Shown in pieces: positions 1,473 through 3,680 of a stretch of DNA of 64,000 nucleotides. This DNA comes from Candidatus Anderseniibacteriota bacterium (lineage in GTDB: Bacteria > Patescibacteriota > JAUYIX01): assembly GCA_046350855.1 (NCBI GenBank), contig JAXLZM010000001.1:217420-281419 (forward strand). The letters are read 5' to 3'. Numbering within the stretch: the stretch's first letter is position 1; each line of letters starts with the position of its first letter. Below the pieces are notes generated by a model. It saw nothing but the letters and a program-made list of their open reading frames with translations. It was not told the DNA's origin and did no database searches. A program made the position numbers and the translations under genes.

Positions 1473-1834
1473 ACTAAACGAGCCGTACCACGAGTTAAGC
1501 GCGGAACAGCGACCCGCAAACGTCACAAGCGATTGTTTAAGAGCACCAGCGGCTACACCGCCGGTCGAACACGCAGCGTCCGCCGCGCCCACGAGGCCCA
1601 GCTGCATGCTCGTAAGCACGCCCAAAACACCGCCGCATGAAGAAGCGCCAGTTCCGCAGCTTGTGGATCGTGCGTATCAACAACGGACTACGCGCCAACG
1701 GTACGACCTACTCGGCCTTTGTGCATCAAGCCAAGGTCAAAAAGGTTCAGCTGGATCGCAAATCCTTGGCCTACCTCGCGGCCGAACAACCCAAGGCCTT
1801 TGCTGCGGTGGTACAGTTTGTAGTTGGCAAATAA
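1473..1834 (+). pseudogene. rplT: 50S ribosomal protein L20 (rplT), one single-base deletion and no canonical start codon in frame
   Basis: Frame 0 gives ...PRVKRGTATRKRHKRLFKSTSGYTAGRTRSVRRAHEAQLHARKHAQN then a stop. The frame starting at 1637 gives MKKRQFRSLWIVRINNGLRANGTTYSAFVHQAKVKKVQLDRKSLAYL, the L20 C-terminus. The shift is at an A4 run near 1624-1627. No ATG/GTG/TTG lies between the upstream stop at 1470 and the PRVKRG codons. Confidence 0.7.
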
Positions 1835-2895
1835 CTAATCAAGCCAAGCAGCATTTTTGAGCTTCTCGCTTAGCTTGTGCGAGTTGGCGTGTGAGAGTAC
1901 CCCTAAATACGATTGGACCGACTGATCGAGTGTTTCTCGAGAGATTTTTCCTTGTCGGTAGCGTGATTGCTGGTAGGCAAGTTTTTTAAATATTCGTTGC
2001 TTAGTCCGTGTCCGCACCCGGCGATAGTGCGGCAAGAGCACATACCCTAAAAAATCAATTCCCTGGCTGAACTTCCGAATAGTCACTTTATGGGGATGCA
2101 ACTGAAGGTGCAGTCGTTCAACCAAAAATTGTTGAATAGGCATAATCAGTCCTTGTAGATAGGACTCGCTGTCGGAGATAACCACAAAATCGTCGGTATA
2201 GCGTAGGTAGTGCTTAACGTGTAGCTGCTCTTTTATAAAGTGATCGAGCTCGTTGAGATAGACGTTAGCAAAAAGCTGTGAGGTGAGATTGCCGATTGGC
2301 AATCCAGTTGGTCGCACCCGTTGGTGTGTGTGTGTGTGTGTGTGTGTGTGTGTGTGGTGAAGCTATCAATCAACAGTTGCAAAAGCCGTCGCGTGCGATC
2401 GTCTTTTACTTTTTTGTCGAGCAGAGACCGTAAGATCTGATGATTAATAGAGGCAAAAAACTTTTTAATATCGCACTTAAGCACAAAGCACGGTCGAGTA
2501 TAGTTGCGACTCACGCGCCGCAAAATTCCCTCGAGCGCCAAAACCCCGCGGTGCGTCCCCTTACCTACTCGACAACTAAACGATCCCCAGTAAAAACTGG
2601 GTTCAAAGAGTGGGTTAAGCACTGCAAACACAGCGTGGTGGACGATCCGATCCCGCACCGTGGCCTTATGGATCGCGCGTGGTTTAGGATCTCGCAAGGC
2701 AAACGAATAGTACGGTCCATGGCGGTAACGACCCGAGCGTAACTCTCGATGTAGTTTAAAAAGCTCGGGTTCAAGCTGCCACTCAAAGCGCTGCACGTCT
2801 ACCTTACTCAATTTGCCACTTTTAAACTCATCCCAAGCCGCAAAAAGATTCTCGAGCGAAGTGATGCGTAAAAATACGTCTTCTGCTAGCCTCAT
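1835..2895 (-). CDS. diversity-generating retroelement reverse transcriptase, reading frame interrupted by an internal (TG)16 tract
   Basis: N-terminal ORF 2895->2233 gives MRLAEDVFLRITSLENL...RAIHKATVRDRIVHHAV...CFVLKCDIKKFFASINHQIL...RRLLQLLIDSFTT(HT)n, covering RT motifs 1-3. C-terminal ORF 2317->1835 gives RPTGLPIGNLTSQLFANVYLNELDHF...YLRYTDDFVV...GIDFLGY, covering motifs 4-7 and the thumb. Motif 4 'IGNLTSQ' is the DGR-RT hallmark and closely resembles Bordetella phage bRT (GIPIGSLTSQLFANVY). The two halves are in different frames on either side of the repeat. Confidence 0.85.
2325..2356. repeat. (TG)16 dinucleotide microsatellite inside the RT coding sequence
   Basis: Perfect tgtg... 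run, 32 bp, read directly. It is translated as (HT)n in the upstream RT frame. Deleting one TG unit, or adding two, would fuse the N- and C-terminal RT ORFs. Confidence 0.95.
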
Positions 2896-2898
2896 GCG

Positions 2899-3285
2899 AT
2901 GGACATCTTTGAGATACCGATTTTCAAAAAAGCCTACGAGCTCTACAAGCTTTTGTACAGCTACCGCGGGGTTATTCCTAAGGCCGACCGTTATACCCTT
3001 TGGCAGCGCTGCGAGGATACGACCTTAGACGTGGTCGACCATATTTTAGAGGCCAGTCAACTTGGCAGAACCGCTAAGCTCACCGCCCTCGAGGAGGCCG
3101 CTCGTAAACTCAATCTGCTGCGCGTTTTGGTCCGCCTCGCTAAAGAGACTACTACTATTAGCGCCAAAAAGTACATCGCCGCTCAAACTCTGATCGACGA
3201 GATTGGACGTATGCTTGGTGGCTGGCTACGAGCTACGCGCGTAGCTGCACAAACTAAACAAGCGCCCGTTTTTGAGCGCTTGTAG
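2899..3285 (+). CDS. avd: DGR accessory variability determinant (Avd), four-helix-bundle protein
   Basis: 128 aa, the same length as BPP-1 Avd. The C-terminal ...KKYIAAQTLIDEIGRMLGGWLRATR resembles BPP-1 ...HQVETAQVLIAEVGRILGSWIARVNRK. It is divergent from the RT, with start codons 3 bp apart (cat gcg atg at 2893-2901). Confidence 0.8.
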   Translation: MDIFEIPIFKKAYELYKLLYSYRGVIPKADRYTLWQRCEDTTLDVVDHILEASQLGRTAKLTALEEAARKLNLLRVLVRLAKETTTISAKKYIAAQTLIDEIGRMLGGWLRATRVAAQTKQAPVFERL

Positions 3286-3295
3286 CTTGAGGGAG

Positions 3296-3430
3296 ACTTC
3301 GGGAGAAAACCGGACGCGGTACCGTAGTTCTCGTTGGCGTTGTTGACCCAGTTGGTGTCGAACTTGACGTTGTCGTCGTTGAAGTTGAAGTACGGTGCGT
3401 TGAACCAACGCTGAGCATCGTCCGGAATTT
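3296..3430 (-). repeat. DGR template repeat (TR), sense strand = minus
   Basis: A 135-bp repeat matching 3778-3912. 26 of 28 mismatches are plus-strand T in this copy versus A/G/C in the other copy, i.e. minus-strand A to N. Many plus-strand 'gtt' triplets correspond to AAC codons on the minus strand. It lies between the avd stop and the avd terminator. Confidence 0.85.
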
Positions 3431-3460
3431 GCCGCGATCCATCTACGTCACCGAGTATTG

Positions 3461-3499
3461 AGTGCGCTTGAGCGCACCCTTTGCTCTGTTTTTAATTTG
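3461..3499 (+). terminator. intrinsic terminator downstream of avd/TR (plus strand)
   Basis: Hairpin GTGCGC-TTGA-GCGCAC followed by cctttgctctgtttttaattt. Confidence 0.5.
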
Positions 3500-3680
3500 A
3501 CAGCAGTCTCATACGAGACACCTGTGCGAGATCGCAACAAGCAGTATCTCCTCAAAAACGATACGCTCATGCAAAACGGACTTCAGCATGATTCTGATCG
3601 TTAGGTTTTAAAGAGAGATTTCGGTAAGCACGATCCGTAAACCGTACTGTATGAACCTATTCTCGTCGTGATTGTAATAA

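Follow-up and report, generated by a model that had tools for sequence, protein, structure and literature searches.

Among the described systems closest to the element reported here are two types of diversity-generating retroelement (DGR). The DGR of the Bordetella phage BPP-1, with the gene order mtd-avd-TR-brt (architecture B1), employs a reverse transcriptase (RT) and the accessory variability determinant Avd in adenine-specific mutagenesis that relates a template repeat (TR) to a variable repeat (VR). A GC-rich 3' end is common to its TR and VR, a stem-loop lies immediately 3' of the TR, and a free spacer (Sp) separates the TR from the RT gene. In the Candidate Phyla Radiation (CPR), architecture B3, TR-(avd)-RT, accounts for 90% of the DGR set of Wu et al. 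2018 (PMC5758913). That paper contains no description of the head-to-head spacing of avd and RT, of a structured RNA 5' of the TR or of repeat tracts in the RT gene, and does not mention promoter, spacer or secondary structure. Conserved structured RNAs that adjoin the TR and presumably position the RT-Avd complex include the RT-10 RNA motif (Weinberg et al. 2017, PMC5737381) and the Sp scaffold of BPP-1 (Handa et al., preprint, 10.1101/2023.10.23.563531). According to the same preprint, 207 of 278 Avd-bearing DGRs, those of CPR included, have a putative Avd-binding stem-loop shortly downstream of the TR. In this study, we analyzed a DGR found in a stretch of 64,000 nucleotides (hereafter the window) of a Candidatus Andersenbacteria genome (contig JAXLZM010000001.1). 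This host agrees with the CPR class of the element, and the TypA encoded in the window shares 100% identity with a protein from a Candidatus Andersenbacteria MAG. Our overall reading, which we consider probable, is that of a B3 CPR DGR with a self-contained TR RNA, in which a dinucleotide tract within the RT gene works as a slipped-strand switch.

The element is a chromosomal DGR of the CPR/Patescibacteria lineage and has the B3 layout target(VR) - TR - inverted avd - RT. The avd gene (2899-3285, plus strand) begins with an ATG at 2899-2901, and the RT gene (1835-2895, minus strand) with an ATG that is the complement of 2893-2895, which leaves 3 bp between the two starts. The avd open reading frame (ORF) matches the Pfam family bAvd with an E value of 3e-18 (66.7 bits against a cut-off of 40). 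The RT carries the motifs of the DGR clade, IGNLTSQ ([LIV]GxxxSQ, motif 4) and the catalytic YTDD (YxDD), and is 45-59% identical over residues 1-351 to CPR DGR RTs that are accompanied by TR/VR pairs. The TR (3296-3427) and the VR (3778-3909), both on the minus strand, form a gapless alignment, with the offset between them constant at 482 nt. When read on the minus strand, 26 of their 28 mismatches are A-to-N changes at TR adenines. The TR contains 37 adenines, 35 of which, many in AAC codons, occupy the first or second codon position in the frame of the target. By sequence comparison, CCGCGTCCGGTTTTCTCCCG is common to TR and VR and divergence sets in 1-4 nt beyond it, at the site of a putative initiation of mutagenic homing (IMH/IMH*) pair. 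The VR forms the 3' end of the target gene (3776-4633, minus strand), whose 285-aa product has homologues that are DGR targets in nine related loci and gave no match in a Pfam search. The cassette is of mixed composition, with a G+C content of about 65% in the target gene (3776-4633) and about 47-52% in RT and avd (1835-3285). No second avd, RT or VR was found in the 64 kb. A second, co-oriented avd copy nearby, which an earlier first-pass annotation of this DNA had named as one of the findings that would overturn its view of the locus, was thereby ruled out. The coordinates in that annotation were all correct when derived again, among them the rplT stop codon (1832-1834) that directly abuts the RT stop codon (1835-1837).

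The first-pass annotation regarded the gene order as unusual and proposed a comparison with homologous DGRs. We therefore scanned one genome per GTDB species and obtained 80 related loci, nearly all labelled Patescibacteria/CPR. An inverted avd lies immediately upstream of RT in all loci with a detectable avd (73 of 80). Where the alignments of both proteins begin at residue 1 (26 loci), the start codons are spaced by -2 to 13 nt in 24, and the 3 nt of the window is a modal value. The TR, mapped in 55 loci, lies on the RT strand with 3-65 nt between its end and the avd stop; the VR is usually located about 480-540 nt upstream. Like the B3 DGRs of Wu et al., the window element has the core order TR - reverse-strand avd - RT with no further accessory gene, and it agrees with them in orientation, in its CPR host and in a target without a recognized domain; it differs from them in an RT interrupted by (CA)16. 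Because B3 is already catalogued and 73 of the 80 related loci are alike, the layout is not unusual. It is typical of its lineage, and an inverted avd abutting RT is the norm for CPR DGRs, already in the literature. The layout alone thus teaches little, and what is left of interest is the recurrent tract in the RT gene and an undescribed domain 5' of the TR in the TR RNA.

The tract, which the first-pass annotation had not noted, is G(TG)16 at 2324-2356 and (CA)16 on the sense strand of RT (minus). It splits the RT gene into an ORF of 220 aa, which runs from 2895 to the tract, and one of 160 aa, which runs from the tract to 1835. The Pfam RVT_1 match is broken at about profile position 118, and the two ORFs correspond to its first and second halves. 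An intact RT, one mark of a putatively functional DGR, is thus lacking in this sequence through the (CA)16 frameshift. Tracts of 12, 15 or 18 units (-4, -1 or +2) would give an RT of the 352-aa class in frame with both IGNLTSQ and YTDD, and we infer that this copy is OFF by one unit. In the RT alignment, the tract falls in the loop that connects motifs 3 (IxSF) and 4 (GLPIGNLTSQ), a loop whose length in homologues ranges from 21 to 55 residues. No other dinucleotide repeat in the 64 kb has 6 or more units. No RT of the same species was found in the protein database, the best match being 60% identical.

These properties resemble those of simple sequence repeat (SSR) contingency loci, such as Type III mod genes with (AG)n tracts, of which the mod gene of Mycoplasma mycoides with (AG)12 is an example (PMC3498834). 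In both cases a long dinucleotide tract lies within an ORF whose frame depends on the number of units, single-unit changes toggle the frame, natural alleles occur in all three registers and such tracts are otherwise rare in the genome. The differences are that the gene gated here is a mutagenic RT, that the hosts are uncultured and that the switch is deduced from sequence. We found no literature tying DGR RTs to phase variation or to simple sequence repeats, only general reviews.

Tracts of a different composition, (GA)n, occupy the same RT loop in several of the 80 loci, with 13 units in L036, 10 in L019 and L061, 6 in L049 and 5 in L047. In the 768 kb that these loci comprise, all dinucleotide repeats of at least 8 units are located either in the RT loop or at the avd/RT junction. 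Junction tracts of this length occur in other lineages (L060, L065, L075 and L053), apparently within the 5' end of avd, and the junction may be a second switch site. Their coordinates are 391-406 in L053, 5927-5950 in L060, 849-868 in L065 and 5951-5968 in L075, with a further tract at 68-79 in L028; they appear to lie in an N-terminal extension of avd, and an upstream ATG is in frame only in L075.

Metagenomes were scanned with a pattern that is unbiased for frame, consisting of (GA)7, a gap of 6-36 nt and codons for P-[IL]-G-N-x-[TA]-S-Q. At least 120 contigs carried (GA) tracts of at least 7 units at the RT loop. We fetched 80 of them, and 67 also carried the N-terminal half of RT and could be scored. 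The tract leaves the two halves in frame in 14 contigs and shifts them by +1 in 33 and by +2 in 20, so that 53 of the 67 are out of frame with both halves intact; no break interrupts the N-terminal alignments, and the ORFs of the C-terminal half measure about 150-160 aa. In one cluster of homologues, an ON and an OFF allele were found between flanks that are 100% identical over 200 nt on both sides: L111 has 9 units and is in frame, whereas L083 and L125 have 8 units and are out of frame. Apart from a duplicated copy in L160, the 413 kb of metagenome loci contained no other tract of at least 7 units. When mapped on a tree of 138 RT N-terminal halves built by neighbour joining, the presence of the tract requires at least 16 gains or losses. 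Neither (CA)7 nor (GA)7 was found upstream of motif 4 in a scan of viral contigs.

The window sequence itself could be compared with independent assemblies. Over 2332-9233, two Logan contigs from SRR26348421 (L081 and L202) differ from it by 8 substitutions, with no indel in 6.9 kb. L081 ends inside the tract, 25 nt in, as would be the case if a 31-mer graph could not resolve the tract because of its length or heterogeneity; for the organism of the window, this break is an indirect hint of length variation. L202 shows 6 differences from the window, of which 3 (at 3873, 3878 and 3903) are in the 132-nt VR and all at TR adenines; L081 adds a fourth TR-adenine site, at 3802. Because the VR alleles differ at TR adenines only, the target appears to have been diversified recently, and we take these differences as a sign of recent mutagenic homing in this population. 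Such diversification is consistent with the element being ON in some cells. The sequence is in a different state in the leftmost 2.3 kb, which the first-pass annotation had not noted either. Compared with the intact genes of L203, a syntenic relative, infC has two 1-nt deletions (at 773 and 935) and rplT has one (at 1628), and the rplT start reads GTA instead of ATG, with 15 nt missing upstream (1480-1495). These defects reflect either damage to essential genes or misassembly limited to this left part of the window. Each of the three deletions is a missing G, and two of the sites adjoin GATC.

The second subject of interest is the region between the target gene and the TR. This 350-nt gap, from target stop to TR, is conserved in length and sequence across the family. 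An alignment of 33 leaders (A1) supports seven helices, with compensatory changes in 41 of 45 pairs. Paired cells amount to 94.4% in this alignment, as against 37-50% when the partners are slid by 1-3 columns, and the covariation score of 0.72, compared with 0.08-0.17, was reached by 0 of 500 shuffles. In the window, the structured leader spans 3429-3648 (minus strand) and comprises H1 (3648-3627), H2/H3 (3600-3559), H4 (3540-3529 with 3440-3429), H5 (3525-3500) and H6/H7 (3486-3453). We assign it to the minus strand, that of TR and RT, because G-U pairs are frequent. A covariance model that was derived from the central 123 positions with the window left out has a single match in the window, at 3605-3487 (minus strand; 67 bits, E 1.6e-14), and also matches 25 of 80 independent metagenome loci. 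Searches against Rfam 15, including its RT-1 to RT-19 motifs, returned no match to the leader (gathering thresholds over the whole window and E values up to 1 over 1-6000), and no family reached its gathering score anywhere in the 64 kb. The leader is thus comparable to the RT-10 motif and the BPP-1 Sp scaffold as a conserved structured RNA that adjoins the TR; it is unlike them in standing on the other side of the TR and in having no Rfam 15 match, and its function is putative. With BPP-1 the window shares RT and Avd, adenine-specific TR/VR mutagenesis, the GC-rich 3' end common to the two repeats and a stem-loop immediately 3' of the TR. It differs in having a large structured domain 5' of the TR, in lacking a free Sp, since an antisense avd stands 3' of the TR instead, and in being chromosomal rather than phage-borne.

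Signals that could delimit a separate TR RNA are present on both sides. In the family, a TATAAT-like box, often in the form TG-n-TATAAT, directly precedes the leader, and the window has TACAAT at this position (3677-3672, minus strand). On the 3' side, a 10-bp stem-loop with a U-rich tail (3283-3258, minus strand) overlaps the avd stop and last codons and is a candidate Avd-binding site and/or terminator. Homologues have a hairpin with a T run, and often an A run on the far side, between the TR and the avd stop or across the stop. The stem-loop of the window has the position just downstream of the TR that Handa et al. described, and its binding of Avd is putative. Finally, a hairpin scan found a hairpin at 3462-3486 that is followed by a T run on the plus strand. 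This hairpin is inside helices H6/H7 of the leader, and the T run (hairpin with T run, 3463-3499) is complementary to CAAATAAAATACA, a near-invariant element of the leader RNA.

These observations can be combined as follows. The TR RNA would be a non-coding transcript of its own, made up of the -10 box, the structured leader, the TR and the 3' stem-loop/terminator; since it would be convergent with avd, co-transcription with RT would be unnecessary. The leader and the 3' stem-loop would dock RT-Avd for self-primed, adenine-mutagenic cDNA synthesis, in the manner of the BPP-1 Sp RNA. For RT and Avd, expression would start from promoters or 5' ends that lie within the coding sequence of the partner gene; indeed, the 3-bp spacing implies that promoters or leaderless starts of the two genes lie within each other. 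The tract would act as a slipped-strand on/off switch, and hypermutation itself would therefore be phase-variable. A wider form of this proposal, for and against which we see equal weight, is that in a large CPR lineage hypermutable tracts, repeatedly gained in the RT loop or at the avd 5' end, gate the DGR, with most cells OFF and a minority turned ON by slipped-strand mispairing, and that a 220-nt structured 5' domain of the TR RNA, as yet undescribed, replaces the downstream Sp scaffold of BPP-1.

Several alternatives have to be weighed against this proposal. The RT frameshift might be an assembly miscount and the tracts neutral expansions in a permissive surface loop, the RT being intact and constitutively available. 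The three 1-nt deletions in infC and rplT and the lost rplT start do suggest errors within 1-2300, and a loop of 21-55 residues evidently tolerates insertions. On the other hand, 2332-9233 is free of indels relative to independent short-read contigs, the break of L081 is what a tract at least as long as the assembler word size, or of mixed length, would be expected to cause, and the 53 of 67 tract-bearing RTs that are out of frame with intact halves come from short-read metagenome assemblies. Elsewhere in the flanking DNA, about 1.2 Mb in all, dinucleotide tracts are absent, which speaks against simple neutrality. On balance, we consider a miscount or neutral expansion somewhat unlikely. Programmed ribosomal frameshifting or transcriptional slippage could also carry expression past the tract, giving a constant low level of RT and no heritable states. 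This would account for alleles that are mostly out of frame yet otherwise intact, and for a VR that was recently diversified in the window despite the out-of-frame RT consensus. But a single programmed shift does not explain registers represented by 33, 20 and 14 (in frame) contigs, no frameshift signal of a known kind was recognized, and length differences between identical flanks were directly observed at the DNA level; we judge this account to be quite improbable. That the element is a decaying, non-functional remnant is suggested by the out-of-frame RT and by neighbouring genes that look damaged too, but is hardly compatible with RT halves, avd, TR, leader and target ORF that are all intact, with a TR that still has 35 of its 37 adenines at codon positions 1-2 and with VR alleles in two assemblies that differ at adenine sites only. 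We give this alternative very little credence.

The transcript organization was also seen differently in the first-pass annotation, according to which avd mRNA ends at the hairpin at 3463-3499 with an antisense TR in its 3' untranslated region (UTR), and the TR reaches RT only by way of a long co-transcript through antisense avd. In the model built on this, antisense pairing would then regulate the element. The plus-strand hairpin with its T run does exist, as that annotation had stated. Its role as the avd terminator is a different matter, since it is part of a conserved, covarying and strand-specific minus-strand RNA, and in most homologues the A-run/T-run hairpin between TR and avd stop would halt both transcripts before they overlap. 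The conserved -10-like box directly before the leader also argues for a TR RNA with its own start; with this box and the 3' stem-loop with its U-rich tail, the need for a TR-RT co-transcript is doubtful. In favor of the first-pass model are the failure of a sigma-70 scan to find an independent RT promoter and the possibility of read-through at the avd stop in the window. The antisense-UTR and terminator parts of that model are probably wrong, and as a whole we hold it to be unlikely.

A number of observations weigh against the combination of a self-contained TR RNA and a slipped-strand switch. In the window, a simple sigma-70 consensus scan gave no score to the -10 box of the TR RNA and found no promoter for this RNA or at the avd/RT junction. 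The plus strand of the window also has no T tail after the stem-loop that overlaps the avd stop, so that avd may be read through into the antisense TR here, although this is not a feature of the family. Transcript ends, promoters and leaderless starts are throughout read from sequence. Because the left 2.3 kb carries three 1-nt deletions in essential genes, misassembly could also account for the count of 16 units. The (CA) composition is without a second example at this loop, where every tract found in a relative is (GA), and length polymorphism between identical flanks was seen in one cluster of homologues only. Moreover, the tract-bearing metagenome sample came from a search that required the tract, and a loop tract of at least 7 units is present in 3 of the 80 GTDB loci, which gives a rough prevalence among all RTs.

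If the tracts are real switches, many CPR RTs that look like pseudogenes would be reversibly silenced. DGR activity would then be a bet-hedged, heritable on/off trait, which would affect how it is deduced from metagenomes. The covarying RNA 5' of the TR, in turn, offers a testable scaffold for recognition of the template by RT-Avd in the absence of a TR-RT spacer.

Insertion of the cassette next to rplT, proposed in the first-pass annotation, is supported by empty sites in relatives and by a bracketing direct repeat. The rplT gene (ribosomal protein L20; 1490-1834, plus strand) is the last of infC-rpmI-rplT, as judged from translations and from alignment to the intact L203 operon, with the frameshift at about 1628. 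Two syntenic relatives, L203 and L204, keep infC-rpmI-rplT on one side and VanZ-Tse3-like-MscS-GT2 on the other and have no DGR in between. In place of window 1841-5554, L203 has a 500-nt segment with a 97-aa ORF (7519-8018), and L204 has a LiaI-like gene, an epimerase and a 96-aa ORF (6914-8472). Nucleotide homology to L203 ends at window position 1840, 6 nt past the rplT stop, and returns at 5555. From these comparisons, the interval from rplT to the VanZ-like gene is a variable hot spot with different cargo in each of the three related genomes, and the view of the cassette as cargo in a variable site just past rplT, whether gained here or lost in the relatives, holds up.

Flanking repeats were among the checks that the first-pass annotation had named, and a repeat was found around the whole cassette rather than around avd alone. 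It is an imperfect 35-nt direct repeat, 25 of 35 positions being identical, whose left copy (1824-1858) covers the junction of the rplT and RT stops and whose right copy (4759-4793) marks the outer cassette edge. It scores 15, whereas neither 1000 shuffles nor 267 real control windows gave a score above 13. When 41 homologous cassettes were tested in the same way, an 85-nt repeat was found around the cassette of L031 (146-230 and 3007-3091), and this repeat is the 3' end of a methionine-aminopeptidase-like gene, judged from its C-terminal translation. L013 and L014 are a possible further case, with paralogy as an alternative cause. B3-type cassettes may thus insert as units, with repeats derived from the 3' ends of adjacent housekeeping genes (rplT and the L031 gene), and the empty sites together with the flanking repeats suggest that they move as units into the 3' flanks of such genes. 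rplT as a family-wide insertion site was ruled out: infC-rpmI-rplT is near the cassette in only 1 of the 80 related loci, and there on the opposite side.

The classical terminator that follows rplT in L203 is gone from the window. Terminator-like hairpins on the rplT strand (1910-1977, plus) lie inside the 3' coding region of RT, and because the original terminator of the operon is gone they may serve infC-rpmI-rplT as a substitute. Just outside the cassette, a DUF5674 gene and an 88-aa ORF (4848-5473) overlap by 4 nt (ATGA), and neither relative has this pair.

The target gene has signals of its own. A promoter-like site (TTGACA, 17 nt, TG-TATTTT; 10 of 12 positions) was found by promoter scan at 4780-4808 on the minus strand, and an intrinsic-terminator-like hairpin of 13 pairs followed by a T run was found by hairpin scan at 3686-3715 on the same strand, about 60 nt past the target stop. 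The -10-like box of the TR RNA comes after this strong hairpin. A sub-threshold match, the only one in Rfam, of the hairpin in the 5' leader of the target gene to mir-308 (4693-4755, minus strand; 29.9 bits against a gathering score of 60) is almost certainly due to chance. In the wider window, a tRNA scan of the 64 kb found none. A long minus-strand cluster of glycosyltransferase, YfhO and glycoside-hydrolase genes extends from about 8 to 31 kb, and an 867-aa BNR/CWB2 cell-wall-binding protein is encoded at 57690-60293.

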